A DNA stretch of 32,000 bases from Candidatus Saccharimonadota bacterium (GCA_963718045.1 OY970350.1:1-32000); one strand, 5' to 3'; positions 3,862 to 25,728 are shown, numbered from the stretch's first letter. Notes: a model not told the origin generated them from the sequence alone. Translations and numbers: made by a program.

Positions 3862-3903
3862 CTTGATATATAATACCAACTTATCAAAAGATTGGCCTGC
3901 TGT

Positions 3904-5415: not shown

Positions 5416-5420
5416 ATTAT

Positions 5421-9773: not shown

Positions 9774-9781
9774 GCCACAAT

Positions 9782-12122: not shown

Positions 12123-14367
12123 GAAGATTAATGCACGTAGATCAATAACAGTAGCAGTATTTGTGTTTTGTCTATTGTTTACATCCATTTTTATATTTAA
12201 AGGCAACACCCATGCGTTCACAGTCAATTACAACCCTAGCAACTTAATAGACAATGGTACCTTACTTAACAACAGTGCGATGAGTGAGGGTGCTATTCAA
12301 ATTTTCTTAACGAATGTTGGTAGCGGTTTAGCTAGCGTTCAAGATGTTGAGGCATGTGATTCAACAATAGCACCTTATTATACTCACTGTAGTCAAACCA
12401 TTTCAGCTGCCCAAATTATTTATGATGCAGCACAGGCTTATGGAGTCAACCCTGAGGCTATACTTGCTACCCTTCAGAAGGAACAAAGTCTCGTTACACA
12501 ACCCGCACCTCCCCCTAGCGATAGTACGGCAGTTGCTAGCTATCAGGCAGCCTTAAATTGCGCTATGGGGTACAACTCTTGCAATGATTACGTTGGCTTC
12601 TTCACTCAGGTTGATAATGGTGCTTGGACTTTAGTCTACAATACTGAAGCAGCTATGCAGGTAGCAAACTGGATGGGTTGGTTACCTGCTACCAATTATC
12701 GTTGTTCAAAAGCAGGTTATATTGATAATGGCACGGTCCAGGTATATTCTACAGGGCTTTATCCAGGTAACACAGTTACATTTGATGATCCGGGTGGAAC
12801 TGCAGAAACAGTCACTTTGGCAAACGCAGCCACAGCTTCTTTATACTGTTATACCCCTTATGTAGGACCTTATAGTGAGACTGGTTATTCTGGGAGTTAT
12901 AACTTTGTTTACTATTTCCAGCTTTGGTTTGGCAACACTCAATCATCTACTGCTTACGCCTGGGATTATGAAGGTCAAGGTGAGTACACTAATGACGGAT
13001 ATTCTGATCCGTTTACAAACGGTCTTTACACAGCTCCCGGACAAACGGCCTATTTGTCAGTAACGGCACGTAATGTCGGTTATGATACCTGGCAACAATC
13101 TGTAGTCCATCTTGGCACGTCTCACCCAGAAGATAGAGATAGCGTATTCACCAATGATAGCTGGCTGTCACCAACGAGAATTGCGATGCAACAAAGCAGT
13201 GTTATACCCGGAGCAGATGCTACTTTTGAGTTTTCTATAACAGCACCCTTAACAACGGGTACTTACTATGAATACTTCAATCTTGTCGCAGACGGTATAA
13301 CTTGGATGGATGATCCGGGCCTATACTTCACTATAAACGTAGTTCAACCACAAACACCAACAAATAATACTAATACTGGGTTACAGCCTGGGCAAACTCT
13401 AAGTATTAGGCAACATCTTTTGTCTCCAGATACTCAAAGTACATTGGCTCTACAGCCAGATGGTGATGTCATTTTAACAAGTGGCGGTCAGGTAACTTGG
13501 AGCAATAGTATAAATAACTCAAATGCCAACAGTCTCATAATGCAATATGATGGGAATTTAGTTGAATATGACAGCAATGGTCGGCCTGTTTGGTCGTCAG
13601 GCACGGGTGGTAATACCGGGGACTCGTTAGCACTACAAATTGATGGGAATTTAGTTATATATAGCTCGAGTGGCTCGCCACTTTGGTCTACTAATACTGG
13701 GAGCAACCCATATTATACGGATAAGGTAGACAGTTTCATCCAACCTGGAGCAGTTATCTTTCCTGGTCAAATATTACAAACAGCTAATAGAGATTACTCA
13801 CTCATAATGCAATATGATGGGAATTTAGTTGAATATAACAGCAATGGTCGGCCCATTTGGTCCTCAGGCACGGGCGGTAATACCGGTGATACGTTGGTTA
13901 TGCAAAATGATGGGAATTTAGTAATTTACAGTTGGCAAGGTATACCTATTTGGTCCTCAGGCACGGGCGGCCTTCCTGATAGCTACTTTACTTTGCAGCC
14001 AGATGGTTCTTTAACAGTCGCAACACCTAACGATGATTCTATTTTGTTGGTAAACTCTAGCCTACAAGATGTCCAAACCATGTTCACGCCGGGGCTAAGT
14101 TACTCGCTAGTTATGCAAAATGATGGGAATTTAGTTATATATGACAGCAATGGTCGGCCCATTTGGTCCTCAGGCACGGGCGGTAATACCGGTGATACGT
14201 TGGTTATGCAAAATGATGGGAATTTAGTAATTTACAGTTGGCAAGGTATACCTATTTGGTCCTCAGGCACGAGCAGTAATAAAAATGATAGCTTGGTACT
14301 GGAAAATAACGGCAATTTAGTTATATACAACATGTCTGGTCGGGCAATATGGAATTCAAACACTTAA
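12106..14367 (+). CDS. Secreted multidomain protein: signal peptide, N-terminal Cys-containing domain with SLT/lysozyme-like motif, Ig-like module, three tandem bulb-type (MMBL, beta-prism II) lectin domains
   Basis: ATG at 12106 follows GGTGGAG (12095-12101) and overlaps the upstream gene by 17 nt. Signal peptide with a likely THA|FT cleavage site. There are six canonical QxDxNxVxY lectin motifs (13543, 13636, 13810, 13903, 14116, 14209) and three degenerate ones. Confidence 0.85.
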   Translation: MLALIKKINARRSITVAVFVFCLLFTSIFIFKGNTHAFTVNYNPSNLIDNGTLLNNSAMSEGAIQIFLTNVGSGLASVQDVEACDSTIAPYYTHCSQTISAAQIIYDAAQAYGVNPEAILATLQKEQSLVTQPAPPPSDSTAVASYQAALNCAMGYNSCNDYVGFFTQVDNGAWTLVYNTEAAMQVANWMGWLPATNYRCSKAGYIDNGTVQVYSTGLYPGNTVTFDDPGGTAETVTLANAATASLYCYTPYVGPYSETGYSGSYNFVYYFQLWFGNTQSSTAYAWDYEGQGEYTNDGYSDPFTNGLYTAPGQTAYLSVTARNVGYDTWQQSVVHLGTSHPEDRDSVFTNDSWLSPTRIAMQQSSVIPGADATFEFSITAPLTTGTYYEYFNLVADGITWMDDPGLYFTINVVQPQTPTNNTNTGLQPGQTLSIRQHLLSPDTQSTLALQPDGDVILTSGGQVTWSNSINNSNANSLIMQYDGNLVEYDSNGRPVWSSGTGGNTGDSLALQIDGNLVIYSSSGSPLWSTNTGSNPYYTDKVDSFIQPGAVIFPGQILQTANRDYSLIMQYDGNLVEYNSNGRPIWSSGTGGNTGDTLVMQNDGNLVIYSWQGIPIWSSGTGGLPDSYFTLQPDGSLTVATPNDDSILLVNSSLQDVQTMFTPGLSYSLVMQNDGNLVIYDSNGRPIWSSGTGGNTGDTLVMQNDGNLVIYSWQGIPIWSSGTSSNKNDSLVLENNGNLVIYNMSGRAIWNSNT
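13838..13965 (+). repeat. Intragenic direct repeat, copy 1 (128 bp, identical to 14144-14271)
   Basis: By-eye alignment shows 13838-13965 is base-for-base identical to 14144-14271. The offset is 306 nt (102 codons, in frame). It encodes NGRPIWSSGTGGNTGDTLVMQNDGNLVIYSWQGIPIWSSGT. Confidence 0.9.
14144..14271 (+). repeat. Intragenic direct repeat, copy 2 (128 bp, identical to 13838-13965)
   Basis: See copy 1. Flanks diverge immediately at both ends (A/G at 13837/14143, G/A at 13966/14272). Confidence 0.9.
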
Positions 14368-14397
14368 TATATCAGGCAACATTAGAGCTTAATCTTT

Positions 14398-15690
14398 CTA
14401 ATATAAATCGTTAATAATCTTCGTCAATTGATCAAAAGTATCTCGCCAACTTGTTGGCTTATATTTGTCCCTTATATCGGCTTCTAGTTGAGATCTAAGT
14501 TTACCATCAGTCAGTCTTAGCATTTGTTCTAAAAAGGCAGACGGATCATATGGTGAGGCATATATACAAAATTCCTTCCCAACTTCTGTCATAGACGATG
14601 TATCGCTACTAATACAGCACTTGCCATAATTTAATGATTCAGCTACTGGCAACCCCCAGCCTTCATAAAATGACGGGAAAACGGTGTACAGACAGTTTTG
14701 ATATAGCCAGGCTAATTCCGTGTCTTTTATGGATGTACATATGGTAATGTTTTTATTAATCTTGGGGTCTTCTGTTAGTAAAGTGAAGGCTTCTTCTGCC
14801 ATCCAACCCTTACGCCCAACAATGACTAGATGAGGAAGCTTGATGCCTTTTTGAAATGCTAAGTTGTATACATAGTAAAAAAGCAGGTAGTTTTTGCGTA
14901 TCTCAATTGTACTAACAGATAGTATAAACTCTTTGGGTATATTAATTTTGGGGGATAATGTTCGCTGCCCGTTTGTTAATCTAATATCTGTCCCAAGTGT
15001 TATAGTCGGCAATATTGGTTTGTTACTAATATTATTCACTTCAAGAAACCACTCAATATCGTGTTTAGTTGATTCAGATATTGCGGGCAATGCATCTGCA
15101 ACTTTAAAGATCTTCTTAAAGTAACTACCAATAATCTTATTGGCACCCTTGTTGGCTAAAGCCGGATTGTTGTATGCTATAAGATCCTGGACAACGTGAA
15201 CTAGCTTAAAGTCGATTTTTTGTTTATCGGCAATTATCTTTTCTGCATATCCATAGAACTGCCAATTCCCATCGACGACAACTACTACATCATCCTTACT
15301 GAACAGTGGTTTTATAACATGGGCGGGTAGGCTCCTAGCATTCCTATACAACGACCTTATTGTGTTGTATGTACCTCTAAGCTGAGGCTCAATTGATAGA
15401 CCCCTAGCTACTTTTTTAGATGTAACGAGTGTATAATAAAGAACTTTTTGTGGCTTTAATTTGCTAATAAAGGGCTCTTTGGAAATGGTAGTTTTAGTCT
15501 GTTTTCTTTGCTCCAAACCAGCTTTTAAATCGCTGAACTTAAGTTCGGTAAAGACGCCGTGATAAACAAACAGCCCATAATCCAGACCTGAATTATCAAG
15601 TTCTTCGGCAATATTAAAATTCACCCTTTGAATGCCAGTAAAGTTACCTTGCCAATGAGCTAATCCTGATACATCAAGCCATATTTTCAT
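14398..15690 (-). CDS. Glycosyltransferase family 4 (group 1)
   Basis: ATGA start/stop overlap with the upstream gene. Typical N-terminus MKIWLDVSGL...GIQRV and C-terminal signature FPSFYEGWGLPVAESLNYGKCCISSDTSSMTEVG. Confidence 0.8.
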   Translation of the reverse strand: MKIWLDVSGLAHWQGNFTGIQRVNFNIAEELDNSGLDYGLFVYHGVFTELKFSDLKAGLEQRKQTKTTISKEPFISKLKPQKVLYYTLVTSKKVARGLSIEPQLRGTYNTIRSLYRNARSLPAHVIKPLFSKDDVVVVVDGNWQFYGYAEKIIADKQKIDFKLVHVVQDLIAYNNPALANKGANKIIGSYFKKIFKVADALPAISESTKHDIEWFLEVNNISNKPILPTITLGTDIRLTNGQRTLSPKINIPKEFILSVSTIEIRKNYLLFYYVYNLAFQKGIKLPHLVIVGRKGWMAEEAFTLLTEDPKINKNITICTSIKDTELAWLYQNCLYTVFPSFYEGWGLPVAESLNYGKCCISSDTSSMTEVGKEFCIYASPYDPSAFLEQMLRLTDGKLRSQLEADIRDKYKPTSWRDTFDQLTKIINDLY

Positions 15691-17942
15691 TGATTTTCCT
15701 TTAGCTCTTTAGATATCAGGCTAGCATATTTCTTAAATGAATACTCACTAGCCAAAAACTTACGGGCAGCCTGACCTATTGTATCTCGACTTTTTGGATC
15801 GTTGATTAAGTCACTAACCTTTTTAATTAGTTCATGCTCGCTACTCACTTTTACTACACACTCGTCCGGCAGTTCAGCAAACCACCCAATATCTCTAACA
15901 ATAACCACCGTACCCCAGCGCATGGCTTCTAGGGCGCTACGAGAAGTTTCACCGTGATATTTAAGTCTGTAGTTAATTAGTATGTCGCTGCCACCTAAAG
16001 CGTCTTGGAACTCTTTGTCGGTCAGGTCCTTAATTACTTCAATGTTGGTAGCCAGATTTTCAAGTAGTGGACTTTCGCCAAGTACACCAAACCCAAAAAC
16101 CTTAACTTTGATGTTGCTAAGTTCAGCTATATTAGCAACGAGACTTATGCCTTTGTCTTCGGATATAATTCCGGCAAAACTAACTGTTATGCCATCACGG
16201 ACCGGAGTATTCTTCGGTACTCCTATCGGATGAAATATTTGGTTAATATTTAAGTTGGTCGATATCTCTTCTATGGACTGGCAAGAATACCCGGAATGGC
16301 AGAAAATAGCCTTTTGGTTAGTCACAATACTGGAAAGACAGCTAGATTTTTTATTAGCTAATTTTGTGTCAATTAACGATTCGTAGAGCCGACGCTTCTT
16401 TGTTAAGTAGCCGTAGCGCTCCATATAATCGAATATGCCGTTAAGCCAGGTATCATGAACAATGGCATTAGCTGGATAGCGCAGAGCACTTAATATAGTC
16501 TGGGTATGGAATTCGCTATTGCCAATGTGATAGAGCACGCGGTCATATTTGTCTTTATTTCGCTCAAAAAAAGCTACTGGGTAGTATTTGGTGGCATACT
16601 CTAAAATATTAGGCCGTGACGGTTCGAATTCAGTTTGGCCGTTTTCATAATAATAGTCGATGTCGTAGAGCCTGGACAGCTCGGCGTGCACCTCAAAGGC
16701 ATATTTACCCACCGCTGAGTAGGAAGACGGCGAAGGACAAAATATAGCCAGCTTTGCTCTTTTGTTTGCCTGCTCTATACGTTTCAATGCTCCCATAAAC
16801 AGAGAAGCGGTATTGTTCCAGGTAAACTTAGCTTTTATCTCTTGGTAGCGCTTTATAAAATGGGTTTGATCGCTTTTAGAATGATCACTCAGAATTGATC
16901 TAAGTATGGTTGTCATGCTGGTGATGGATTTAGGATCAAAAAAGGAAAAGGCATCAGTGCTAATTTCTCTAAATACCGGGATATTAGAACAGGCTACTTG
17001 GGTGTTTCTATTCACTGCCTCGAGTATAGGCAAGCCCAGTCCTTCATACTCGCTCGGGAAAAATACTAGACGTGTATTATCTATGAGCCAGAGTAGTTCG
17101 CTGCTAGATACGCTACCAGAAAATATAATATCCGGGTATATACCCTTAAGCTGGCGCTGAGTTTCTTGGCTAAAATTAGAAGTTACGACTAGCTGATTAC
17201 TGCCCTTCAGTTCGGCAAAGGCTCTAACAGCCAGCTCATTATTCTTCCGGAAATCGTCACCGCTCGGCATAAGAACAAAATCGTTGTTTAAGCCGTCTAT
17301 TTTGGGTTTGCTAGGTTTAGTCTTGTCTGTGTGCGCACCGGCACCAAAGATGGGTGCTGTTCTTATAGGATCAATACCAAAATATATCGTTAGGTCATCG
17401 GCGGTTGTCTCAGAGTCCGTTACATACAGATCGGCTTTATAGGCCTCCGCCCATCGTTGGGAGTAGTCTATGCGAGCGCTACTCTCGTGATCACGGAAGT
17501 ATTGTTTGGGGTATAAAAAAGGTATTATATCGTGAAATTGGAGAAGGTTGGCTGTGCCCTTGCTCGGAAATACTGGGTATATTTCACTGCTAAAAAGAGC
17601 TGGTATAAAAAAGACTGTTTTGGTAGATTGACCTTTGTTTACTATTAGACTATCGATGGTAGCCTTATTGGCTTTTACGGCCTGGCCATAAAGCTCGCAG
17701 TTCTTTTTAGCCAGTAATTTAGCTTTTAGGACATCTCCTCTAAAACCGCTGAGTATTGCTGCGTCTTTTTCGGATAGGTCAGGCAGTTGGCTGTTAGTGA
17801 TAAAAGTCCACTGTACGCCGGGTTCGTTTTGGGTAGAAAGAGCTTCAAGGAGGTTCTGTAAATACAGCCCCATACCGCGGTAACGGTCACTGGTTTGCAG
17901 TAACTGGCAATCAAATATGACATGTAGATGGTTGCCTGGCAT
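15687..17942 (-). CDS. Two-domain glycosyltransferase (tandem GT4-like GT-B modules), candidate chain-extending polymerase
   Basis: 751 aa. The first module has FFPSEYEGLGLPILEAVNRNTQVACSNIPVFREI (EX7E). The second has YHGETSRSALEAMRWGTVVIVRDIGWFAEL (EX7E). TAATG overlap with the upstream methyltransferase gene. Confidence 0.75.
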   Translation of the reverse strand: MPGNHLHVIFDCQLLQTSDRYRGMGLYLQNLLEALSTQNEPGVQWTFITNSQLPDLSEKDAAILSGFRGDVLKAKLLAKKNCELYGQAVKANKATIDSLIVNKGQSTKTVFFIPALFSSEIYPVFPSKGTANLLQFHDIIPFLYPKQYFRDHESSARIDYSQRWAEAYKADLYVTDSETTADDLTIYFGIDPIRTAPIFGAGAHTDKTKPSKPKIDGLNNDFVLMPSGDDFRKNNELAVRAFAELKGSNQLVVTSNFSQETQRQLKGIYPDIIFSGSVSSSELLWLIDNTRLVFFPSEYEGLGLPILEAVNRNTQVACSNIPVFREISTDAFSFFDPKSITSMTTILRSILSDHSKSDQTHFIKRYQEIKAKFTWNNTASLFMGALKRIEQANKRAKLAIFCPSPSSYSAVGKYAFEVHAELSRLYDIDYYYENGQTEFEPSRPNILEYATKYYPVAFFERNKDKYDRVLYHIGNSEFHTQTILSALRYPANAIVHDTWLNGIFDYMERYGYLTKKRRLYESLIDTKLANKKSSCLSSIVTNQKAIFCHSGYSCQSIEEISTNLNINQIFHPIGVPKNTPVRDGITVSFAGIISEDKGISLVANIAELSNIKVKVFGFGVLGESPLLENLATNIEVIKDLTDKEFQDALGGSDILINYRLKYHGETSRSALEAMRWGTVVIVRDIGWFAELPDECVVKVSSEHELIKKVSDLINDPKSRDTIGQAARKFLASEYSFKKYASLISKELKENQ

Positions 17943-19054
17943 TAGTTGGCCACCATTTTTTTAAGGATTTTACTCATTAAGCCGTACACCTTTGAGGTCA
18001 ATTTCCAAAAAAAGAGCTTAAAATAACTTCTAAACAGAGTTTTTGTCTCTTTGATATTTTGATTATCCCGATTATGAATAAAAGCCAACATTTCTTCTTT
18101 TGAAATCTTTTCGCCATTAAGTACACTTGTAAGCTTTGGGTCATTTTGATATTTCAATCCCCTTAGTTGTTTGAAGCCATTCGCCCGTCTATTAAGTCTG
18201 GCCTGTATTTCTGTGTTTAATCGCCGGACAAGGAATTTGACATCCCTTTGTTGCTTTTGCAAAAATATTATTTCTTGTTCTTGATCAGATATTTTGTTGA
18301 GTATTATTTTTTCTCGCTCTTTTACGATTTTCTCGGTCTCTTTTTTCGCGTCTTGTTTAATTTCTTGTTCGGCCAAAAAATACACGGGGGTTCCCGACAG
18401 TACTGCATTAGGGTAATTAAAGTATTTTTTTCTATTTAGCGATTCTTTGGCCAAATAGTATTTATTAACGCCATCATAAAATACTTCGTTATAATCATAA
18501 TCTTTAAGCAGTGGTTGCCAGTCCCTGTGTATATGGCTGGTTTCAATGCAAATTAGTTCAGGACGAACATTTTTAAAGTCATAGCCTGCCAATACTTTAT
18601 ACTCATACCCCTCCACATCTATCTTTAGAAAGTGCACGTGTTCAACCTCATGTTCATTAAACACTTCCCCGAGACTCTCGACTAGGACTTTGTAATCTTT
18701 GCTCTTCCGTGTCGGGTAGTTATTTTTAGAATTTTTGTAGACGGCTCTCATCGATTTGTCAAAAGTTGATAGACCGTCTTCTCCGGGATACTCAGTGAAC
18801 AATAGTTCTTCTTTTTTCTCGCCAATACCAATACACAGATTTTTGTCTCGAGGTCTCTGTTTATTGAGGTTGTCTATGTGTTTTTTAATAGGATCGATAT
18901 TTATACCATGCCAACCTTCATCATAAAATAGCTTGGTGACAGAGTCGATCACTGGGTCATTGGCACCAACGTCAATGTAAAACCCATTGTTAACATCAGA
19001 GAAAAAAGACTTAATAAGCAAGTCTTCTCTATTTTGCGAATAATAAAATCGCAT
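17942..19054 (-). CDS. FkbM-family SAM methyltransferase fused to a coiled-coil and a C-terminal amphipathic helix (candidate chain terminator)
   Basis: FkbM motifs FYIDVGANDPVIDSV and FLKIDVEGYEYKVLAG within aa 1-215. Heptad-rich, charged aa 228-292 (nt 18179-18373). C-terminal FRSYFKLFFWKLTSKVYGLMSKILKKM (nt 17951-18040). GAGGA lies 9 nt upstream of the ATG. Confidence 0.75.
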   Translation of the reverse strand: MRFYYSQNREDLLIKSFFSDVNNGFYIDVGANDPVIDSVTKLFYDEGWHGINIDPIKKHIDNLNKQRPRDKNLCIGIGEKKEELLFTEYPGEDGLSTFDKSMRAVYKNSKNNYPTRKSKDYKVLVESLGEVFNEHEVEHVHFLKIDVEGYEYKVLAGYDFKNVRPELICIETSHIHRDWQPLLKDYDYNEVFYDGVNKYYLAKESLNRKKYFNYPNAVLSGTPVYFLAEQEIKQDAKKETEKIVKEREKIILNKISDQEQEIIFLQKQQRDVKFLVRRLNTEIQARLNRRANGFKQLRGLKYQNDPKLTSVLNGEKISKEEMLAFIHNRDNQNIKETKTLFRSYFKLFFWKLTSKVYGLMSKILKKMVAN

Positions 19055-19056
19055 TA

Positions 19057-20082
19057 TTAGATTTCCTCTTCTATATGAACGTGCGATAGTTTATGCTTAG
19101 AGAAAACTAGGAATGTTAAAGACTCTGTAGTGCTAATTACCTGTCCATATTCCGTATTTTCTAGGTGTCTTAACTGCCCGTCTGGCATAATACTGTATAC
19201 AAACTCAAAGTCAGATATAAGTTGGGCGTAGAATTTTTGAGGGTTTTCATATCCACCTTTTGTAAACTCCATAAAAAGTATTAAATTTGGGCTCTCTTTT
19301 ACTATTCTCCTCATACCTTCATATGCAGTTTCTTCATACCCCTCAATGTCCATTTTTATAAGGTCAATCTTTTTAATCTTATTCATCTTACAATAACTAT
19401 CTAGGTCAATAGTTGGCACAGTCACAGTACTTTCAGCCTCAACGTTCATTTGGTGTCCGTTGTAACTCATAAGTCGCTCGATTGACTGCATTGATGATGA
19501 GCCAATATAATCTTTAAGTATATTCAACTTAGAAGTACCTTTTTTGTTACTGAGCGCCGTGTTTTCTACAATAGTATTTTCGTTCAACCAATTAACAGAA
19601 AGGGTTTTATGTATATAGTGATGAAGATTGGGATTGGCTTCAAATAGTATTACTTTGCCACGTTTTCTGTTCATCTGAGCGGCAAATACGCTGTAGTAGC
19701 CAAAATTTGCTCCTATATCAACAACTACCGGATCTGGGCGAACGTCCTTTTCTAGTGTAGCAAGCCAAGCATATGTAATCTCCCTCTCCCATATACGTTC
19801 AAGGGCTATATGCGGTACCACGGCTATATCATAGGGGTCTAGATACATGATAAGGTCGTTGAAGAGTTTAACTGCAATCTCCCTCTCTGAAATAGGCATT
19901 ATGCCCACTGTGTCATATCTGCCCATCCTATCTTGTACATCTGAGAGTTTTTTAACATCTTTGCGCAAAGCTTCTGTAGCCGTCTCAAGTCCTACTAGTC
20001 TTTTAAATGCATTGCCCGTCATCTTATTGGCTACCGCTTGGTAAACACTTTTACTGTTCTTCACTAGAATCCTCTTCTCCAT
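19057..20082 (-). CDS. FkbM-family SAM methyltransferase with N-terminal extension
   Basis: VVVDIGANFGYYSVFAAQ and LIKMDIEGYEETAYEGM motifs. Start is ambiguous: in-frame ATGs at 20166 (116-nt overlap with wzt), 20082 (32-nt overlap) and 20022 (no overlap). None has a clear SD. Confidence 0.7.
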   Translation of the reverse strand: MEKRILVKNSKSVYQAVANKMTGNAFKRLVGLETATEALRKDVKKLSDVQDRMGRYDTVGIMPISEREIAVKLFNDLIMYLDPYDIAVVPHIALERIWEREITYAWLATLEKDVRPDPVVVDIGANFGYYSVFAAQMNRKRGKVILFEANPNLHHYIHKTLSVNWLNENTIVENTALSNKKGTSKLNILKDYIGSSSMQSIERLMSYNGHQMNVEAESTVTVPTIDLDSYCKMNKIKKIDLIKMDIEGYEETAYEGMRRIVKESPNLILFMEFTKGGYENPQKFYAQLISDFEFVYSIMPDGQLRHLENTEYGQVISTTESLTFLVFSKHKLSHVHIEEEI

Positions 20083-21274
20083 GTTTAGTCTTGAGTACGA
20101 CTGACATGGGCGGCATGATCGCAGTAGTTGATCGTTCAATTCTTTTAACAACGAATGAGGCAGCATTACTATACCAATCCAGGGGAGTATGCGATCCGTC
20201 TACCAATGTGAGCGTAACAAAATACCTGCCATCACTAAAAATGTTTAAAACTTCCCATTCTAATCGCACTGTTTCTGACTTTTTCAGCTCAATTATGTCT
20301 GGTTTGTTGACCATTCGGTTGTTTGTAGCGACAATTTCTTTGCCATCAACACCTGATATATGAATTCCATACTGAATTAATTCGAAATCTTTTGTCTTTG
20401 CAGTCACATCAGCCTGAACATATACATGATCATCCTTCGTGATAACTTTGACTTTATCGTATTTAGCATCGCCAGTTCCCCAGCGCTGCGACTGAGAAGA
20501 ATTACCACTCTCTGTTTCTGCTTGATTATCTATAAATAGGAGAGAGTATTCCTTAGCAACATCCCCGGATAAACCACTTGCCTTGAGTCGGGCGTCATCT
20601 ATAAGCACTGCTCGATCACAAAACTCACGCACTGCGTCCATATCATGGCTCACAAAAACAACTGTTTTTTTATTCTTCTTTAGGGTCTGGAAATATTCAA
20701 AACACTTCCGTTGAAAGTCGGCATCACCAACTGCGAGCACCTCATCGACTAGCAATATATCTGCCTTGGCTCTTGTTGCCATTGAAAACGCTAAACGCAC
20801 TTGCATGCCCGATGAATAGTTTTTTAGCTTCTGGTCCATGAATCGTTCAAGTTCAGCAAATGAAACTATTTCATCGTACATTGCTTCGACCTCATCACTA
20901 GAAAATCCCAACATTGCACCATTTAAATAAACATTGTCCCGACCCGATAACTCTGGATTGAATCCTACGCCTAATTCTATAAAAGGTACCAGCTTACCTA
21001 TTGTGGTTACATTACCTTTTGTTGGTTGGTAAATAGATGCTAGCAATTTGAGAAGTGTGGTTTTCCCACTTCCATTTCTGCCAACGATACCAAAAAATTC
21101 ACCTTTTTTTATTTCGAAAGATATGTCTTTAAGGGCGTGTTGCTTCTCCTTAATCCTCGTAGCTTTATTAAACATACTGGTAAATATGCCTTTTACACTC
21201 CCCACCCTTTCGTGAGGTAAAATAAAGTCTTTATAGACATTTTCAACCCTAATTACAATTTCATCATTTTCCAT
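20051..21274 (-). CDS. wzt: Polysaccharide ABC exporter ATP-binding protein with C-terminal Wzt_C-like carbohydrate-binding extension
   Basis: Walker A GRNGSGKTTLLK, signature YSSGMQVRLAFS and Walker B ILLVDEVLAVGD are present. An extra roughly 150 aa follows the NBD (RWGTGDAKYDKVKV...FVTLTLVDGS...). The ORF-track start at 21292 is TTG. The ATG at 21274 follows a perfect AGGAGG (21281-21286) and sits 1 nt after the wzm stop, so it is preferred. Confidence 0.85.
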   Translation of the reverse strand: MENDEIVIRVENVYKDFILPHERVGSVKGIFTSMFNKATRIKEKQHALKDISFEIKKGEFFGIVGRNGSGKTTLLKLLASIYQPTKGNVTTIGKLVPFIELGVGFNPELSGRDNVYLNGAMLGFSSDEVEAMYDEIVSFAELERFMDQKLKNYSSGMQVRLAFSMATRAKADILLVDEVLAVGDADFQRKCFEYFQTLKKNKKTVVFVSHDMDAVREFCDRAVLIDDARLKASGLSGDVAKEYSLLFIDNQAETESGNSSQSQRWGTGDAKYDKVKVITKDDHVYVQADVTAKTKDFELIQYGIHISGVDGKEIVATNNRMVNKPDIIELKKSETVRLEWEVLNIFSDGRYFVTLTLVDGSHTPLDWYSNAASFVVKRIERSTTAIMPPMSVVLKTKHGEEDSSEEQ

Positions 21275-21275
21275 A

Positions 21276-22082
21276 CTAAACCTCCTCGGCAAACGATTTA
21301 GACCGTCTGCGGAAATAGTTTGAGGTCAGAATAAAAAGTATAACTGTGATCCCGATTGGGATAGCCCATACCCAATAATCACCTCCATATACCTTGGATA
21401 TCGTTTGTGTGGAATGCGTTATAAGCACATATCTGGAGTCTTGAATAACTTGAGCCATCGGGTTAAGTATCAAAAACTTAGCAAAAGAGTGAGGGACACG
21501 TGTTAATGGGTAAAGTATTGGTGTCGCATAGAAAGCTGCCTGGATTATAACTTCCCAAATATAGGACATGTCTCTATACCTTACAAAAGCAGTACTTAAG
21601 AAAAAGGCAGCTGTTACTGCTATCAGAACGAGCTCAAGAAGAAGTGGTATCAATAATAGAGCTTGAAGATGAACGGCGACATGCCCAACTACCATAAAGA
21701 TAATAACTACTACAGCTGTTAAAGATAGGTTAATTAAAGCAGCAATAATAACGGCCAGAATAATTACATACTTAGGAAAGTTAATTTTACGAATTAGATC
21801 ACCCTTCCCCACAATGGATGTAACGCTTCCCATTGTCACTTCAACAAAAAAGTTCCAGAACAATAGTCCGAGTAATAAGTAAACCGGATAATGAGGGACA
21901 CTATTCCCGACTTTTAAGAACTTAGTAAAGACAAAATATAGGATTAAGAATAGTAGCAGGGGACGAAGAAGTGACCATACATAACCAAGTATTGAGTTTT
22001 GGTAACGTAGCTTAAAATCAGTACGGACGATTTCACGAAGTAAAATAACCGAGTATCGGTAACGCTGTTTTAATTTCCCCAT
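21276..22082 (-). CDS. wzm: Polysaccharide ABC exporter permease (ABC-2 type)
   Basis: 268 aa with six predicted TM helices, the ABC-2 N-terminus REIVRTDFKLRYQNSILGYVWSLLRPLL, and tight coupling to the downstream ATPase. Confidence 0.85.
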   Translation of the reverse strand: MGKLKQRYRYSVILLREIVRTDFKLRYQNSILGYVWSLLRPLLLFLILYFVFTKFLKVGNSVPHYPVYLLLGLLFWNFFVEVTMGSVTSIVGKGDLIRKINFPKYVIILAVIIAALINLSLTAVVVIIFMVVGHVAVHLQALLLIPLLLELVLIAVTAAFFLSTAFVRYRDMSYIWEVIIQAAFYATPILYPLTRVPHSFAKFLILNPMAQVIQDSRYVLITHSTQTISKVYGGDYWVWAIPIGITVILFILTSNYFRRRSKSFAEEV

Positions 22083-22163
22083 TAGCAGTAATTTTACTGA
22101 TTATTGCGGCTGTCGGCAAGGATACTGTCTTTTGCAGTGATACTATTGTAGTCTGATTACAGT

Positions 22164-23090
22164 ATGACCAAAGTATTAGTGACAGGCTCAAACGGTTTTG
22201 TTGGTAAACATCTTTTAGATGAACTTTTGGCCAATGGTTATGAAATATTAGCTATTGGAGGACGCCAATTATCAGACATAGTTAACGATAGGGTTGAGTA
22301 TAAGGCGCTTGATCTTACCGATATTAAAGAGGTTGAGAAATTAAACTTTAGTAAAATTGATTCAGTAATCCATTTAGCCGGACTTGCAGCTGTTGGCCCG
22401 TCTTTTGACGACCCAATGGGTTATATATCGGCAAACATAGGGATGGAATGTAACCTATACGAGATTGCCAGGAAACAAAATGTTCATCCGAGATTCTTAA
22501 TAATTAGTAGTGGTAGTCTCTATGATCCAAGCTCTGGCCTGCCCTTAAATGAAGATTCGGCGGTTAAACCATTATCTCCATACTCGGTAAGTAAGCTAGG
22601 CCAGGAACAGTTAGCTGAATACTACGAAGGTCAGGGTTTTGAATATATTATTGCTAGACCTTTCAACCATTGCGGCCCAGGACAAGGACCTGGATTTTTA
22701 GTATCAGATTTAGCCAGACAACTTGTTGATTGTGAGAAAAATAAAGGTAACGAAGTAACTGTCGGTAATATCAAGACAAAACGTGACTATACAGATGTTA
22801 GGGATATTGTTAGAGCCTATAGATTGCTGTTAGAGAAAGGTGAGTCACATAAAGTTTATAACGTTTGCTCTGGTAAGGCGCATAGCGGCCAAGAAATATT
22901 AGATACTCTAATGAGCTTCGCGAACAAAAGGCCCAAGATAGTTGTTGATCAAGATAAGTTTCGCCCAACAGATATTGACAGTATATTCGGAGATAACTCG
23001 TATCTAAGTAATACCACTGGCTGGCAGCCTCAAATAGAGTTGAAGCAAACACTAGCTGATGTCATGGACTACTGGAGGAGTATGGAATAG
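22164..23090 (+). CDS. rmd: GDP-4-dehydro-6-deoxy-D-mannose reductase-like SDR (predicted GDP-D-rhamnose synthase)
   Basis: VLVTGSNGFVGKHL, SPYSVSKLGQE (YxxxK), ARPFNHCGPGQ, VYNVCSG and TGWQPQIELKQTL follow the Rmd pattern as recalled from Pseudomonas/Aneurinibacillus enzymes. It is convergent with and 7 bp from gmd. The Rmd versus other 4-reductase assignment needs phylogeny. Confidence 0.65.
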   Translation: MTKVLVTGSNGFVGKHLLDELLANGYEILAIGGRQLSDIVNDRVEYKALDLTDIKEVEKLNFSKIDSVIHLAGLAAVGPSFDDPMGYISANIGMECNLYEIARKQNVHPRFLIISSGSLYDPSSGLPLNEDSAVKPLSPYSVSKLGQEQLAEYYEGQGFEYIIARPFNHCGPGQGPGFLVSDLARQLVDCEKNKGNEVTVGNIKTKRDYTDVRDIVRAYRLLLEKGESHKVYNVCSGKAHSGQEILDTLMSFANKRPKIVVDQDKFRPTDIDSIFGDNSYLSNTTGWQPQIELKQTLADVMDYWRSME

Positions 23091-23097
23091 CTATCGT

Positions 23098-24096
23098 TTA
23101 GGCTGAGGGTATATCCCTAGCCGACTCAAGACCTATATCATACTCAACCATCATCTTGACTAGACCCTGAAAATCTACTTTTCTTTTCCAGCCTAGTTTC
23201 TTTTCTGCTTTGGATGGGTTCCCTAGTAATATGTCCACTTCTGCCGGCCTCATAAAGGCTGGGTTTTGTTTGACATAAGGTTTCCAGTCATTAATCCCAA
23301 CCTGTTTAAAGGCTAGGCTCAGAAAGTCCTCGATTGAATGAGTTTCGCCGGTAGCCAATATATAGTCATTTGGTTGTTTTTGCTGGAGCATCCGCCACAT
23401 ACCCTCGACATAGTCGCCAGCATAGCCCCAATCTCTCTTCGGCTCTAGATTACCGAGTTCAATATGATCTTGCAGGCCTAAATGTATTCGAGCAACTGCA
23501 TTACTTATTTTTCTGGTAACAAACTCTATGCCTCGATAAGGCCCTTCGTGGTTGAATAAAATACCGCAGCTTGCGTGCATTCTATAGCTTTCCCGGTAAT
23601 TTTTAGTAATCCAGTGACCATATAGTTTTGCAACGCCATACGGGCTTCTGGGATGAAATAATGCATCTTCATCATATCCTTTGCCAGGACGGTTATAGTC
23701 TAGGCCGCCAAACATTTCACTGGTTGATGCCTGGTAAAAACGGATAGTCTTTGTGCCACCAGTTAAACGAATTGCTTCTAATAAATTCAGAACGCCTAGG
23801 CCGGTAACTTCAGCTGTTAAAAAAGGATTCTTAAAAGAATAGCCAACATGGCTGACGGCTCCAAGGTTATACACTTCATCGGGCTTAGCGACTTCTAGTG
23901 CGCGTGTCAGTGATGTTTGATCTGTTAGATCAGCCTCAATTAGTTTTATATAAGGCTGTTCCTGTTCAATCCGTATTTTTTTAGGGTTTTGCTGCCCACG
24001 AATGACCCCATATACCTCATAGCCTTTCTCTTGCAGCAGTTCAGATAAATGATGGCCATCTTGACCCGTGATACCTGTTATTAGAGCAGTTGGCAT
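23098..24096 (-). CDS. gmd: GDP-mannose 4,6-dehydratase
   Basis: ALITGITGQDGHHLSELLQEKGYEVYG, QASTSEMFG, SPYGVAKLYGHW and FNHEGPYRG are hallmark Gmd motifs. AAGGAG (24101-24106) lies 4 nt upstream of the ATG. Confidence 0.92.
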   Translation of the reverse strand: MPTALITGITGQDGHHLSELLQEKGYEVYGVIRGQQNPKKIRIEQEQPYIKLIEADLTDQTSLTRALEVAKPDEVYNLGAVSHVGYSFKNPFLTAEVTGLGVLNLLEAIRLTGGTKTIRFYQASTSEMFGGLDYNRPGKGYDEDALFHPRSPYGVAKLYGHWITKNYRESYRMHASCGILFNHEGPYRGIEFVTRKISNAVARIHLGLQDHIELGNLEPKRDWGYAGDYVEGMWRMLQQKQPNDYILATGETHSIEDFLSLAFKQVGINDWKPYVKQNPAFMRPAEVDILLGNPSKAEKKLGWKRKVDFQGLVKMMVEYDIGLESARDIPSA

Positions 24097-24145
24097 AAAT
24101 CTCCTTTAACAATTATTTCTTGTAGCTAGTATAGCATCGTGGTTT

Positions 24146-25264
24146 ATGCGATATTATTACTTAATGGGTTTAATAGCTATTGATGCCAGGTCATCAGGCA
24201 CATCAACTGGTAGGTACATAGATAAATTAATTGAATATATTGCTAAGATTGATCCTGATTACGACTTCAATATAATCACTTACTCCAACCGGGCAGATTT
24301 TATAAAGAAGATTGCACCTAAATATGCTGTCTGTGAGACTAAAGTCCCGCTGTTAGGATTCAAAGAGCAGACAGATCTTCTTAAAGAAGTTAATGAATTA
24401 GATGCTGATCTCGTACACTTCGCTATGACCCAGCAACCAGTTATGTATCGAGGCAAAGTCGTAACGACAATACATGATTTAACCATGTCTAAATCAGAAT
24501 TTCGTAATCCTTTAACGCCACGACCAGTATTTGAGGTTAAGAAAATTGTATATAACCGAATAGTTAAAATGGCAGCATCTAAATCGACGGTAATAATTAC
24601 GCCTACTGAATATGTAAAGAGTGATGTCATTAAATTTACCCATCAGCCCGCAAATAAGTTTGTTGTGACTCTAGAATCAGCAGACAAGATAAAAGAGAAG
24701 GCTGATCCGATGAAAAAATTAGTTGGTAAGAAGTTTATTATGTATATTGGCCGGCCGTGGCCTCATAAAAACTTAAACCGTCTAATTGATGCTTTTGAGA
24801 TATTAAAAGTCAAACATCCTGAACTATGTTTAGTCCTAGCTGGTAAGAAAAATGATAATTATCTAAACATAGAGAAAGACGTTAAAGAGAGGGGCCTTAA
24901 AGATGTTATCTTTACCGACTTTATATCTGAAGGACAGCTTAGGTGGCTATATGAAAACTGTGCAGCCTATATCTTCCCTTCTTTAAGTGAGGGTTTTGGT
25001 TTGCCCGGACTCGAGGCAATGGTACATGGAGCTCCTGTGGTATCTAGTAATGCCGCCTGTTTACCAGAAGTTTACGGTGACGCTGCGATGTATTTTGATC
25101 CTAAAGACATTGACAATATGGCTGACGTTATTAACAAGGTCTTAAGTGACGAGAATCTGCGTACCAAGATGATTAAGAAAGGTCATACCCAGGTTGCTAA
25201 ATACTCCTGGCAAAGAATGGCTGAGCAAACACTGGCTGTCTACGACCGGGTGTTGAAGTCTTAA
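24146..25264 (+). CDS. Glycosyltransferase family 4 (group 1)
   Basis: IAIDARSSGTSTGRYIDKL N-terminus and FPSLSEGFGLPGLEAMVHGAPVVSSNAACLPEVYGDAAMYFDP signature. An alternative ATG at 24164 (MGLIAIDAR) would give a more typical N-terminus. Confidence 0.85.
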   Translation: MRYYYLMGLIAIDARSSGTSTGRYIDKLIEYIAKIDPDYDFNIITYSNRADFIKKIAPKYAVCETKVPLLGFKEQTDLLKEVNELDADLVHFAMTQQPVMYRGKVVTTIHDLTMSKSEFRNPLTPRPVFEVKKIVYNRIVKMAASKSTVIITPTEYVKSDVIKFTHQPANKFVVTLESADKIKEKADPMKKLVGKKFIMYIGRPWPHKNLNRLIDAFEILKVKHPELCLVLAGKKNDNYLNIEKDVKERGLKDVIFTDFISEGQLRWLYENCAAYIFPSLSEGFGLPGLEAMVHGAPVVSSNAACLPEVYGDAAMYFDPKDIDNMADVINKVLSDENLRTKMIKKGHTQVAKYSWQRMAEQTLAVYDRVLKS

Positions 25265-25728
25265 TCTTTAGCAGGTTTTAAGACAATGTGCCTGTCCCGG
25301 CCTTCACCTTCCGAATCACTTATTAAGCTGTATTCTCCAGCTAGTTTATGAATTACCCGGCGGTCTGAAGCATTCATAGGTTCTAGTGACATTGGTTTTT
25401 TACTGTCTCTGACCTTTTTCATCCAGTCTTCAGCCCTATCTCTTAGTCTGTCGGCTCTTTGTTTCTTATATTCAGCTATGTCGACATTTACCCTGGTATG
25501 TGAGAAATCGTTATTCTTTAGTGCTGTTGAAGTAAGGTACTGCATGGAGCGCATATTCTCACCTCTTTGGCCTATTAAAAAGCCGTTGAGATGGGTACTT
25601 GGTACGCCTAACTGTATAACTTCGTCCTCACTGGTGGCATAGACATCAGTATTTAGCCCAAAGAAAGACAATATATCTTCAAGGTATTTTTTAGCATAAA
25701 TAATAGCTTCTTCCAGTGAATCGTTCAT
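25261..25728 (-). CDS. jag: Jag/KhpB-type RNA-binding protein (KH + R3H domains)
   Basis: KH-type GxxG (LIGQRGENMRSMQYL) and R3H (ASDRRVIHKLAGEY...GEGRDRHIVL). AGGAG lies 6 nt upstream. ATGA overlap with yidC; conserved yidC-jag synteny. Confidence 0.85.
   Translation of the reverse strand: MNDSLEEAIIYAKKYLEDILSFFGLNTDVYATSEDEVIQLGVPSTHLNGFLIGQRGENMRSMQYLTSTALKNNDFSHTRVNVDIAEYKKQRADRLRDRAEDWMKKVRDSKKPMSLEPMNASDRRVIHKLAGEYSLISDSEGEGRDRHIVLKPAKD

Follow-up and report, generated by a model that had tools for sequence, protein, structure and literature searches.

The logic of glycan assembly with ABC-transporter export is already established, for O-antigens in Gram-negative bacteria and for S-layer glycosylation in Gram-positive ones, and the locus described here leaves the workings of such pathways unchanged. 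A monoderm example is the slg cluster of Geobacillus stearothermophilus NRS 2004/3a (WsaP, Wzm/Wzt, WsaC-F, WsaE, WsaB), in which a WbaP-like initiating transferase, WsaP, is encoded with the exporter, multi-domain glycosyltransferases make the rhamnan in the cytoplasm from dTDP-L-rhamnose (RmlABCD), and the terminal rhamnose receives a 2-O-methyl cap from the methyltransferase domain of the polymerase WsaE. The cap is the proposed stop and export signal, and the cluster also encodes a Wzy_C-family transferase, WsaB; the acceptor is the S-layer protein SgsE, encoded nearby (PMC2943079). In the diderm Aquifex aeolicus, the polymer handled by WzmWzt (PDB: 8dku, 7k2t) consists of D-rhamnose and D-mannose with a 3-O-methyl-rhamnose or 3-O-methyl-mannose cap; Trp362 of Wzt stacks on the 3-O-methyl group, and the product is ligated to lipid A-core (PMC9445017).

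The CPA loci of Pseudomonas (pa5447-pa5459 in P. aeruginosa and the 'TET' operon of P. syringae) contain a gmd/rmd pair with an adjoining glycosyltransferase family 4 (GT4) gene and vary between relatives from wzt onward within fixed flanks; the LPS-linked product is started by WbpL with GlcNAc-1-P (PMC3560663, PMC7820976). Two methyltransferases of the P. aeruginosa locus are needed for CPA but are not WbdD-like length regulators and have no membrane or spacer domains, and control of chain length by export or glycosyltransferases has been proposed for PA5455/PA5456 (PMC3560663). The E. coli O9a and O8 systems use the terminator WbdD, which joins a catalytic domain to a long helix and a C-terminal amphipathic anchor, together with a two-module GT4 polymerase, a Wzt carbohydrate-binding domain (CBD) that reads the cap, a WecA-type start and ligation to lipid A-core. 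Finally, the rhamnose wall polysaccharides of streptococci and lactococci and mycobacterial arabinogalactan are lipid-carrier wall polymers of monoderm or non-LPS cells. They contain L-Rha or Galf/Araf, start with GlcNAc-1-P (TagO/WecA/RgpG type), leave the cell through Wzm/Wzt-type exporters, receive their decoration outside from GT-C enzymes working with GtrA-like proteins and are attached by LCP enzymes. To our knowledge, their exporters have no Wzt_C cap-binding domain.

A glycan island beside the replication origin

The window, the whole stretch of 32,000 nucleotides analysed, belongs to a Saccharibacterium genome of 764 kb, recovered as a single contig and 100% complete. The contig record is circular, and the gene for the initiating transferase runs over the record start. 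A cell-surface glycan island of ~28 kb, ~3.6% of the genome, extends from a Wzy_C gene at G000:C1:761547 to window position 25264 and adjoins the replication origin. Six reverse-strand genes, beginning with wzm and ending with a GT4 gene (14398-22082), form a single tight operon in which neighbours abut or overlap, with gaps of at most 2 nt: wzm, wzt with its Wzt_C domain, two FkbM methyltransferase genes, a two-module GT4 gene and a GT4 gene. The operon is flanked by rmd, gmd and one more GT4 gene. Scans for promoters and terminators did no better than on shuffled sequence.

Neither LpxC nor Omp85 was found anywhere in the 100%-complete single contig, and the 80 best Wzt relatives come nearly all from Saccharibacteria/Saccharimonadia metagenome-assembled genomes. 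These data support a host predicted to have no outer membrane and no LPS, in agreement with the monoderm, CPR-like context proposed in a preliminary description of this DNA. The gene content listed there was recovered as well: manB, manC, gmd, the Rmd-like reductase gene, wzm/wzt, two FkbM genes, the transferase fragment at 1-288 and four GT4 enzymes, one of them bidomain, are all intact ORFs at the coordinates given there.

Precursor supply

A phosphomannomutase/phosphoglucomutase of ManB type (1382-2815, forward; PGM_PMM domains I-III; NF046027 PgmG at 370 bits, under the cut-off) lies beside the mannose-1-phosphate guanylyltransferase ManC (2812-3879, reverse; NTP_transferase and ManC_GMP_beta-helix). 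ManC comprises the GMP part only, without an isomerase domain, its TIGR01479 match covering profile positions 2-350 of 467; a PGI/PMI-family gene is located at 54 kb in the genome. The UDP-glucose 4-epimerase GalE (3937-4950, forward; TIGR01179, 382.7 bits against a cut-off of 262) may be the source of UDP-Gal for the primer, for a furanose branch or for both.

The GDP-mannose 4,6-dehydratase Gmd (23098-24096, reverse; PF16363, 412 bits; TIGR01472, 389 bits, just below the cut-off of 415) adjoins a short-chain dehydrogenase/reductase (SDR; 22164-23090, forward) assigned as an Rmd-type GDP-4-keto-6-deoxy-D-mannose reductase from PDB matches and motifs. Its best PDB matches are Rmd enzymes (2pk3, 193 bits, 5.9e-56; 6x3b, 168 bits, 2.7e-48), followed in third place by a GDP-heptose 4,6-dehydratase at 127 bits, and in a full-length alignment it has the SPYxVSK and RPFNHxGPGQ motifs common to both Rmd structures. 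Comparison with reference reductases, named earlier as a means of refutation, therefore shows the two solved Rmd enzymes to be the nearest matches of the protein, and the suggested branch from GDP-mannose to a GDP-6-deoxyhexose stands, with a true Rmd-type reductase and Gmd both present. The pair recurs in 39 of 80 related loci at a median distance of 976 bp, and its predicted product is GDP-D-rhamnose, whereas the slg cluster uses dTDP-L-rhamnose. The predicted D-Rha/D-Man composition likewise differs from the sugars of the wall polysaccharides and arabinogalactan.

Export and cap recognition

The operon begins with the ABC-2 permease gene wzm (21276-22082, reverse; ABC2_membrane, PF01061, 60.6 bits), which has homologues in 75 of the 80 related loci. 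It is followed by wzt (20051-21292, reverse), encoding an ABC ATPase (ABC_tran, PF00005, 78 bits) with a C-terminal carbohydrate-binding domain (Wzt_C, PF14524, 48.4 bits against a cut-off of 30.4); the likely start codon is the ATG at 21274. The best PDB match, and best structural relative, is A. aeolicus Wzt, which aligned over residues 48-385 through both the nucleotide-binding domain (NBD) and the CBD (E 1.7e-61). The cap-stacking Trp362 has W373 as its aligned counterpart, a residue retained by 68 of 78 Saccharibacteria homologues; 76 retain the Asp before it. The pocket differs at A. aeolicus Ala348, which is Thr here, and in a trap loop that is 3 residues shorter. The best NCBIfam scores of Wzt and Wzm were to teichoic-acid and mycobacterial galactan exporters, all under the cut-offs. 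Thus the C-terminal extension reported for Wzt is a recognisable binding domain with the stacking Trp retained, as opposed to a TagGH-like exporter lacking one, and the assignment to an ABC-transporter-dependent pathway is borne out by Wzm and a Wzt with a predicted cap-binding domain.

Saccharimonadia share a conserved wzm-wzt core adjoining jag-yidC-dnaA, and their sugar and cap genes vary; in a class-wide sample of 301 genomes, 135 carried Wzt_C. Variation from wzt onward within fixed flanks is also the pattern of the Pseudomonas CPA loci.

Methyltransferases and chain termination

The first methyltransferase after the exporter (19057-20166, reverse; PF05050, 70 bits; TIGR01444, 98 bits) has an FkbM catalytic domain at residues 150-327 preceded by an N-terminal region, and homologues in 11 of 80 related loci. 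The ORF as called overlaps wzt by 116 nt, so the actual start codon may be further downstream. The other enzyme, FkbM370 (17942-19054, reverse; 370 aa; PF05050, 89 bits), was modelled with AlphaFold2 (AF2) at pLDDT 87.6. The model has a helix at 226-292 (67 residues, ~100 Å) with a moderate heptad pattern (10 of 19 a/d positions hydrophobic) and a second, C-terminal helix at 341-369, which is basic and amphipathic (net charge +7, hydrophobic moment 0.56). Homologues with similar basic tails occur in 29 related loci. A Foldseek search with the model returned generic methyltransferases only, and neither sequence nor fold comparison turned up WbdD. The modelled order of catalytic domain, long helix and amphipathic anchor is the build of WbdD, differing from it in the ~100 Å helix and in the FkbM-type catalytic domain without a kinase, and it makes FkbM370 a candidate membrane-tethered chain terminator. 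By contrast, the P. aeruginosa methyltransferases lack the spacer and membrane domains predicted here, and in slg the methyltransferase is a domain of WsaE, not a free enzyme.

The gene directly after wzt was compared in 68 loci (67 related loci and the window). It encodes an FkbM protein in 30, another SAM methyltransferase in ~11, a protein-kinase domain in 3, a GT4 in 14 and RgpF in 3 related loci. Gene order and domain architecture suggest that terminal methylation is the stop signal; since the P. aeruginosa enzymes are not length regulators, methyltransferase adjacency is in itself no proof of termination.

Chain assembly and decoration

The two remaining operon genes encode a two-module GT4 of 751 aa (15687-17942, reverse; Glycos_transf_1-type stretches spanning 221-358 and 602-738; 30 of 80 loci have a homologue) and, at the operon's end, a GT4 of 430 aa (14398-15690, reverse; PF00534, 60 bits; homologues in 62 of 80 loci). 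By analogy with WbdA and WsaE, the two-module enzyme is a candidate chain polymerase. Conservation among the glycosyltransferases of the locus is highest for the GT4 beyond gmd (24146-25264, forward; 372 aa; PF00534, 121 bits), of which 71 of 80 related loci have a homologue, and its place relative to gmd/rmd resembles, as a positional analogy only, that of wbpZ in Pseudomonas, judged from the P. syringae gene order (PMC7820976). GT4 matches in PDB and NCBIfam were generic and assign no sugar specificity.

A second group of genes, the upstream module of the island, points to decoration outside the membrane. It comprises a small GtrA-family membrane protein, a candidate polyprenyl-phosphate-sugar flippase (4942-5433, reverse; PF04138, 75 bits); an extended SDR epimerase/reductase (5421-6464, reverse; PF01370, 114 bits) with generic PDB and NCBIfam matches only; and an FAD enzyme of the uncharacterised family PRK07208 (6536-8143, forward; NF005546, 867 bits), distant kin of eukaryote-type UDP-galactopyranose mutases (PDB: 4dsg, 7e-12; 3uka, 1e-11). 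The next protein (8100-9773, forward; 557 aa) matched no Pfam family. Its AF2 model (pLDDT 86, pTM 0.86) identified it as a GT-C-fold membrane glycosyltransferase, all 13 best Foldseek matches in PDB being GT-C enzymes (AftB, ArnT, PglB and OST among them), with AftB best. The protein has a conserved SDDVSWQN motif in its first loop and, going by the model, would use lipid-linked donors on the outer side of the membrane. A second polytopic membrane protein (9782-11389, forward; ~11 hydrophobic segments) appears to be a distant paralogue of this GT-C family (18% identity in the alignment). Such a module is absent from slg and shared with the wall polymers. Next in order come a single-pass membrane protein of 190 aa (11550-12122, forward; one N-terminal hydrophobic segment) and a secreted protein that carries bulb-type mannose-binding lectin domains (12106-14367, forward; PF01453, 80.5 bits). 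The two genes co-occur in 5 related loci, which makes the smaller protein a partner of the lectin.

Initiation and acceptor candidates

Window positions 1-288 (forward) encode the C-terminal 95 aa of a polyprenyl-phosphate hexose-1-phosphate transferase of WbaP/WsaP type (Bac_transf). The gene starts at G000:C1:762925; the last 1152 contig bases joined to 1-288 give 479 aa, and the joined frame crosses the record start without a stop. PF02397 profile positions 88-178 match in 1-288, and positions 1-87 match at the contig end together with CoA_binding_3. In a genome-wide profile search, Bac_transf gave these two half-matches only, that is, a single gene. The one Glycos_transf_4 member of the genome is MraY-like, with an HHHFE motif, and no TagO/WecA/RgpG-type GlcNAc-1-P transferase homologue was found in the genome. 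A GT4 gene (285-1382, forward; PF00534, 91.7 bits) overlaps the transferase stop with its start and, from this position, is a candidate for the adaptor glycosyltransferase.

Divergent from the initiating transferase and just upstream of it lies a Wzy_C gene of 438 aa (G000:C1:761547-762863; PF04932, 50.7 bits), the only one in the genome and part of the island across the record start. No PDB or NCBIfam match tells whether its product is a ligase or a protein transferase. No Wzx-type flippase was found in the genome, which speaks against a polymerase role. The earlier statement that the window holds no O-antigen ligase or lipid A genes is thus literally true and yet misleading, as this candidate ligase or oligosaccharyltransferase lies just across the circular record start. 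The suggested search of the rest of the genome for LCP-family ligases yielded two membrane-anchored LCP proteins (PF03816, 106.7 and 97.9 bits, above the cut-off), encoded outside the island, 10 kb and 60 kb away. Over the whole genome, polyprenyl-phosphate transferase (PGT) and Wzy_C genes are each represented once and LCP genes twice. Of seven ORFs picked out by a scan for Ser/Thr-rich stretches, one encodes an LCP protein, and by eye its counterpart likewise ends in a Ser/Thr-rich tail; as a sign of glycosylated acceptor proteins this amounts to no more than a hint.

Proposed pathway and alternatives

We propose that the locus encodes an assembly line of known type, in which a D-rhamnose/mannose chain is built inside the cell, probably methyl-capped, and exported only when capped; we put the probability of this reading at about 0.7. 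Gene and domain identities are what is directly seen, and from them we infer the remaining steps. GDP-mannose would come from ManB, ManC and a bifunctional-type PGI/PMI encoded at another place in the genome; Gmd and Rmd would turn part of it into GDP-D-rhamnose, and GalE would provide UDP-Gal. The sole WbaP-type transferase would load hexose-1-phosphate onto undecaprenyl phosphate, the GT4 enzymes at 285-1382 and 24146-25264 would add the adaptor, and the two-module GT4 and the GT4 at 14398-15690 would lengthen the D-Rha/D-Man chain in the cytoplasm. One or both FkbM enzymes would then O-methylate the non-reducing end sugar, FkbM370 holding the membrane by its basic amphipathic C-terminal helix with the ~100 Å helix as spacer, in a WbdD architecture without the kinase. 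The Wzt C-terminal domain would bind the methylated end, Wzm/Wzt would move the lipid-linked chain out, and the GT-C enzymes (8100-11389) and GtrA would attach side sugars outside the membrane. Transfer to the acceptor may fall to the adjacent Wzy_C-family enzyme (to protein, as WsaB does with S-layer proteins, or to lipid) or to an LCP enzyme (to peptidoglycan). Characterised precedents exist step by step (PMC9445017, PMC2943079, PMC3560663, PMC7820976).

The same pathway might instead make a wall polysaccharide on the plan of the streptococcal and lactococcal rhamnose polymers and of arabinogalactan, attached to peptidoglycan by an LCP enzyme and decorated outside by the GT-C enzymes, with the Wzy_C protein serving another purpose; this differs from our proposal only in the acceptor. 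The two membrane-anchored LCP proteins, the sub-cut-off resemblance of Wzt and Wzm to teichoic-acid and galactan exporters, GtrA and the GT-C enzymes with AftB as top fold match, the UDP-galactopyranose mutase-like FAD enzyme beside GalE and RgpF after wzt in some relatives all favour it. However, both LCP genes lie outside the island, the genome has no enzyme of the TagO/WecA type that starts most LCP-linked polymers, and the Wzy_C gene divergently adjoins the sole initiating transferase. We regard LCP attachment as a reasonable possibility, though one we would not bet on at even odds.

Two further alternatives concern the cap and the sugar. It is unlikely, in our view, that the methyltransferases add internal or non-stoichiometric O-methyl groups while export or a glycosyltransferase sets the length and the Wzt CBD reads an unmethylated feature. 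Such an arrangement would fit the P. aeruginosa CPA enzymes, which gave no WbdD-style chain shortening (PMC3560663), the partial conservation of the CBD pocket and the GT4 in place of a methyltransferase in 14 of 68 loci, but a methyltransferase directly follows wzt in ~60% of loci, the methyl-stacking Trp is kept, and the modelled spacer helix and anchor of FkbM370 are hard to account for in a simple decorating enzyme. Because Rmd and the related GDP-6-deoxy-D-talose synthase are inseparable by sequence, the sugar could also be 6-deoxy-D-talose. The reductase at 22164 could otherwise use a heptose-derived intermediate, and in either case the polymer would be no rhamnan. Reductases that act on the same 4-keto intermediate and give the opposite C4 configuration fall in the same SDR subgroup, and the third PDB match is the heptose-pathway enzyme. 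We nevertheless consider this quite improbable: the top two matches are biochemically defined Rmd enzymes, aligned over the full length with a clear gap in score (193 and 168 against 127 bits), and the reductase is strictly paired with a canonical Gmd.

Relation to known systems and significance

The preliminary comparison with O8/O9a or CPA held for ABC export, the Wzt CBD with its predicted reading of the cap, the methyltransferases after wzt (two, as in P. aeruginosa), the candidate two-module polymerase and the GDP-6-deoxyhexose branch with its adjoining GT4, but not for initiation, which is of WbaP/WsaP type, not WecA or WbpL; nor does the lipid A-core ligation of E. coli and A. aeolicus, or the LPS linkage of Pseudomonas CPA, fit a genome in which neither LpxC nor Omp85 was found. 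In initiation the locus resembles slg, which shares the monoderm host, the WbaP-type transferase with an ABC exporter, the overlapping order of wzm, wzt and the next gene, a Wzy_C-family gene and, in our proposal, cytoplasmic rhamnan synthesis and an O-methyl cap; the proposed polymer and cap resemble those of A. aeolicus. The claim that no such system had been characterised in this kind of organism accordingly applies to Saccharibacteria and the CPR, for which the literature searched gave passing mentions only, and not to monoderms in general, given the G. stearothermophilus S-layer glycan (PMC2943079). Those mentions are of 'unexplored glycosylation processes' (10.1101/2024.11.25.624915) and, in Southlakia, of unnamed EPS genes of importance to growth (PMC10633639).

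Saccharibacteria are tiny parasites that spend their lives attached to other bacteria, with a surface chemistry of their own about which next to nothing has been described. The commitment of ~28 kb of a 764-kb genome to one glycan, at a fixed place by oriC, suggests that the glycan is important. If the locus works as proposed, the envelope should contain D-rhamnose and O-methyl sugars, export should depend on the cap, and a Wzy_C or LCP enzyme should carry out the acceptor step, all testable in strains that are by now genetically tractable. For the class as a whole we tentatively speculate, with more doubt than confidence, that a methyl-capped D-rhamnose/mannose polymer from the conserved origin-adjacent locus is the main wall or surface glycopolymer, replacing teichoic acids; that the stretch from wzt onward, cap enzyme and glycosyltransferases included, behaves as a serotype cassette replaced from lineage to lineage; and that FkbM370 is a molecular-ruler terminator which arose independently of its analogue WbdD. 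If so, cassette swapping would set how phages, the host bacterium and the lineage's own wall enzymes with lectin domains recognise these cells.

The glycan island and its export operon

The genome is a single contig (G000:C1) of 764,076 bp with a GC content of 42%, and the window is its first 32 kb. An initiating sugar-phosphate transferase begins in the final 1152 contig bases, which encode its N-terminal 384 residues (CoA_binding_3 and Bac_transf profile positions 1–87), and positions 1–288 carry Bac_transf profile positions 88–178. The frame joined across G000:C1:762925–764076 and 1–288 gives 479 amino acids with no stop, which indicates that the record is circular and that the glycan island crosses its start. 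The preliminary description was correct in assigning an initiating transferase to 1–288, but what it called a fragment is part of an intact gene split by the record start. Directly upstream of this gene, and divergent from it, lies a gene of the Wzy_C (O-antigen ligase/oligosaccharyltransferase) family (G000:C1:761547–762863, minus strand; 438 amino acids, approximately 10 hydrophobic segments), the only one in the whole genome. The island covers approximately 28 kb, or 3.6% of the genome, with the Wzy_C gene at one end and position 25264 at the other. Upstream of the Wzy_C gene come genes for a PIN protein, a sortase, and a 377-amino-acid protein of no assigned family, as well as a LexA-like gene.

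The export operon consists of six minus-strand genes with overlapping or abutting ends: wzm (21276–22082; ABC2_membrane), wzt (20051–21292; ABC_tran and Wzt_C, the latter at 48.4 bits against a cut-off of 30.4, with the ATG at 21274 as the likely start), the FkbM methyltransferases FkbM369 (19057–20166) and FkbM370 (17942–19054), a 751-amino-acid protein with two GT4-type modules (15687–17942), and a GT4 glycosyltransferase (14398–15690). The FkbM369 open reading frame and the end of wzt share 116 nt (20051–20166); the annotated FkbM369 start is uncertain, since initiation at the in-frame methionine at residue 29 or at residue 49 would reduce or abolish the overlap. An SDR gene (22164–23090) is divergent from wzm, with gmd (23098–24096) on the same side and another GT4 gene (24146–25264) beyond it, followed in order by jag, yidC, rnpA, dnaA, dnaN, and recF. 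Just past recF, a VirB4/TraG-type P-loop ATPase (31286–31999) opens a type IV secretion locus. The stretch at lower coordinates than the operon encodes the Bac_transf part, a GT4, a ManB-type mutase, a ManC that lacks the isomerase domain, a GalE matched above cut-off by TIGR01179, GtrA, an SDR, and an FAD enzyme, and then a pair of large polytopic proteins, a small membrane protein, and a lectin protein. Open reading frame listing and Pfam and NCBIfam scans bear out the inventory of the preliminary description. None of the GT4 enzymes received an NCBIfam name above cut-off, nor did Wzt, Wzm, or Rmd (GDP-4-keto-6-deoxy-D-mannose reductase). Searched by sequence against the PDB, the two-module GT4 and the GT4 at 24146–25264 matched only MshA-like enzymes, which are uninformative on sugar specificity; labor would be divided among the GT4 enzymes. 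An Rfam scan of the window gave no match, and a promoter and terminator scan of 14000–25800 performed no better than on shuffled sequence.

Wzt carries a C-terminal carbohydrate-binding domain

The best structural relative of Wzt is full-length Aquifex aeolicus Wzt (PDB: 8dku/7k2t; E 1.7e-61), aligned over residues 48–385 and including the C-terminal carbohydrate-binding domain (CBD). A grouping with teichoic-acid TagGH exporters, which lack a CBD, had been proposed as a check on the original reading; this alternative was rejected because Wzt bears Wzt_C and the alignment with A. aeolicus Wzt runs through the CBD. The A. aeolicus O antigen is a D-Rha/D-Man polymer with a 3-O-methyl-Rha or 3-O-methyl-Man cap, and the CBD, whose methyl pocket comprises Leu300, Thr346, Ala348, and Trp362, binds 3-O-methyl-D-mannose but not mannose (Spellmon et al., PMC9445017). 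Allowing for a PDB-chain numbering offset of one, Thr346, Ala348, and Trp362 correspond to T360, T362, and W373, and relative to A. aeolicus the trap loop lacks three residues. W373 is conserved in 68 of 78 Saccharibacteria Wzt homologues, and the preceding aspartate in 76 of 78. O-methyl capping would serve as both the stop and the export signal.

A predicted membrane-anchored methyltransferase as candidate terminator

An AlphaFold2 model of FkbM370 (24 homologues, mean pLDDT 87.6) comprises a methyltransferase domain (residues 1–220), a single unbroken helix of 67 residues and approximately 100 Å (226–292), a lower-confidence stretch, and a final helix (341–369). The tail has a net charge of +7, a hydrophobic moment of 0.56, and a mean hydrophobicity near zero, a combination characteristic of in-plane membrane anchors. 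Similar basic amphipathic tails are found in 29 FkbM370 homologues, most of them encoded directly after wzt. WbdD, the terminator of E. coli O9a, consists of a catalytic head, a coiled coil, and a C-terminal membrane helix; FkbM370 has the same architecture, except that its head is of FkbM type and a kinase is lacking. The heptad regularity of the long helix is only moderate, and a Foldseek search of the model against the PDB returned generic class-I methyltransferases (E ~1e-3) and no WbdD, a result that is uninformative on terminator homology; the resemblance is therefore one of architecture, not membership.

Among 68 loci (the window and 67 related loci), wzt is directly followed by a gene for an FkbM methyltransferase in 30 cases, for a different SAM methyltransferase in approximately 11, for a GT4 in 14, for RgpF in three, and for a kinase-domain protein in three. 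These counts suggest that a candidate cap-making enzyme beside the cap reader is the rule in Saccharimonadia. The kinase-domain genes, all in related loci (3/67, two also matching APH), recall the kinase half of WbdD. Adjacency to wzt should not be equated with termination, since the two partly redundant methyltransferases of the Pseudomonas aeruginosa D-rhamnan (CPA), whose combined loss abolishes CPA, have no extra domains and are not WbdD-like rulers (PMC3560663). The predicted anchor distinguishes FkbM370 from these enzymes.

Precursor supply

The SDR at 22164–23090 matched Aneurinibacillus thermoaerophilus Rmd best in the PDB (2pk3; 193 bits, E 5.9e-56), followed by P. aeruginosa Rmd (6x3b; 168 bits), a GDP-heptose dehydratase (127 bits), and, below that, GalE-type proteins. 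It aligns end to end with both of these Rmd enzymes, which are biochemically defined, and has in common with them the SPYxVSK catalytic motif and a RPFNHxGPGQ stretch, while its scores against the NCBIfam Fcl, GalE, RmlB, and Gmd models fall far under the cut-offs. By this bit-score ranking, used in place of a formal tree, the protein sits with Rmd and not with non-GDP-sugar SDRs, a placement on which the preliminary description had made its reading depend. We therefore assign it as a predicted Rmd-type GDP-sugar reductase; D-rhamnose and 6-deoxy-D-talose, which differ in C4 stereochemistry, are not separable at this level. The chain would be composed of D-Rha and D-Man. An incomplete supply of GDP-mannose was considered: family searches of the genome detected neither a type I nor a type II phosphomannose isomerase, yet a bact-PGI_C gene (G000:C1:54022–54468), from a family that includes bifunctional PGI/PMI enzymes, is the only recognizable route to mannose-6-phosphate. 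Its presence makes GDP-mannose synthesis from fructose-6-phosphate plausible, and the alternative was rejected.

A putative extracytoplasmic decoration module

Pfam searches at E up to 1 found nothing for 8061–9773, 9782–11389, or 11550–12122; of these, the first was identified by its fold alone. The protein at 8100–9773 has no Pfam family and 22 homologues, all unnamed. Its model (pLDDT 86, pTM 0.86) has a GT-C fold: the 13 best PDB fold matches are all GT-C glycosyltransferases, among them AftB (the best), ArnT, PglB, OST, and DPY19, and its first loop contains a conserved acidic motif, SDDVSWQN. The 535-amino-acid polytopic protein at 9782–11389, also without a Pfam family, aligns as a distant paralogue. 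The protein at 8100–9773 could found an undescribed GT-C family. The FAD enzyme (6536–8143) belongs to the uncharacterized NCBIfam family PRK07208 (867 bits); given its distant relationship to UDP-galactopyranose mutases of the eukaryote type and the closeness of its gene to GalE, it may make a furanose sugar donor. Together with GtrA and the SDR, these proteins resemble the extracytoplasmic post-polymerization glycosylation modules that PMC11127046 reviews, and decoration would take place outside the membrane.

Envelope and attachment

Genome-wide family searches found neither LpxC nor Omp85/BamA in this genome, which is rated 100% complete; the same searches were positive in diderm control genomes. 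The monoderm, reduced genome originally proposed is thus supported. The genome encodes one Glycos_transf_4 member, MraY-like with an HHHFE motif, one Bac_transf gene, two LCP genes, and six GT2 genes elsewhere.

Two routes of attachment to the acceptor were weighed. Neither the PDB nor NCBIfam returned a match for the Wzy_C protein. A Wzy-dependent pathway was rejected for it because no Polysacc_synt-type flippase, the only flippase family searched, was found in the genome. The gene adjoins that of the genome's sole initiating transferase, and this, with the lack of a Wzx-type flippase, points to a ligase or protein O-oligosaccharyltransferase, like WsaB in Geobacillus. The two LCP proteins (G000:C1:41674–43446 and 702904–704421, both minus strand) are each anchored in the membrane at the N-terminus and end in a long Ser/Thr-rich tail, a type of sequence that is a typical substrate for O-glycosylation. 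Attachment to peptidoglycan by the two LCP enzymes and Wzy_C-type transfer are about equally possible.

Conservation and precedents

A Wzt scan of one genome per species gave 563 relatives, of which the best 80 (47%–63% identity), almost all from Saccharibacteria/Saccharimonadia MAGs, define the related loci searched by tblastn with the window proteins. Homologues of Wzm were present in 75/80 loci, of the GT4 at 24146–25264 in 71, and of the GT4 at 14398–15690 in 62; Jag was found in 54 (median distance to wzt 5.3 kb), YidC in 49, and DnaA in 38. Gmd and Rmd occurred together in 39 (median spacing 976 bp), FkbM370 and the two-module GT4 in 30 each, and FkbM369 in 11, with both FkbM types in only two. 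Across the class, Wzt_C was detected in 135 of 301 evenly sampled genomes; for high-quality genomes the figure was 123 of 260, and for genera 101 of 160. Judged from these homologues, the locus appears to combine a wzm-wzt-GT4 core, fixed in place beside the origin, with sugar, polymerase, and cap genes that can be exchanged. The P. syringae "TET" operon (wzm, wzt, a bifunctional glycosyltransferase gene, plus one for an O-methyltransferase) follows the same pattern; strains swap its wzt-onward part, which tracks with their sensitivity to tailocins (PMC7820976).

Our literature search found no description of this locus in Saccharibacteria. Every step of the proposed pathway has a characterized precedent: A. 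aeolicus for the exporter and cap, Pseudomonas CPA for the sugars and operon, and E. coli O9a for the terminator architecture. The S-layer glycan (slg) cluster of Geobacillus stearothermophilus, with its WbaP-type start and Wzy_C transferase, provides the same logic in a monoderm (PMC2943079).
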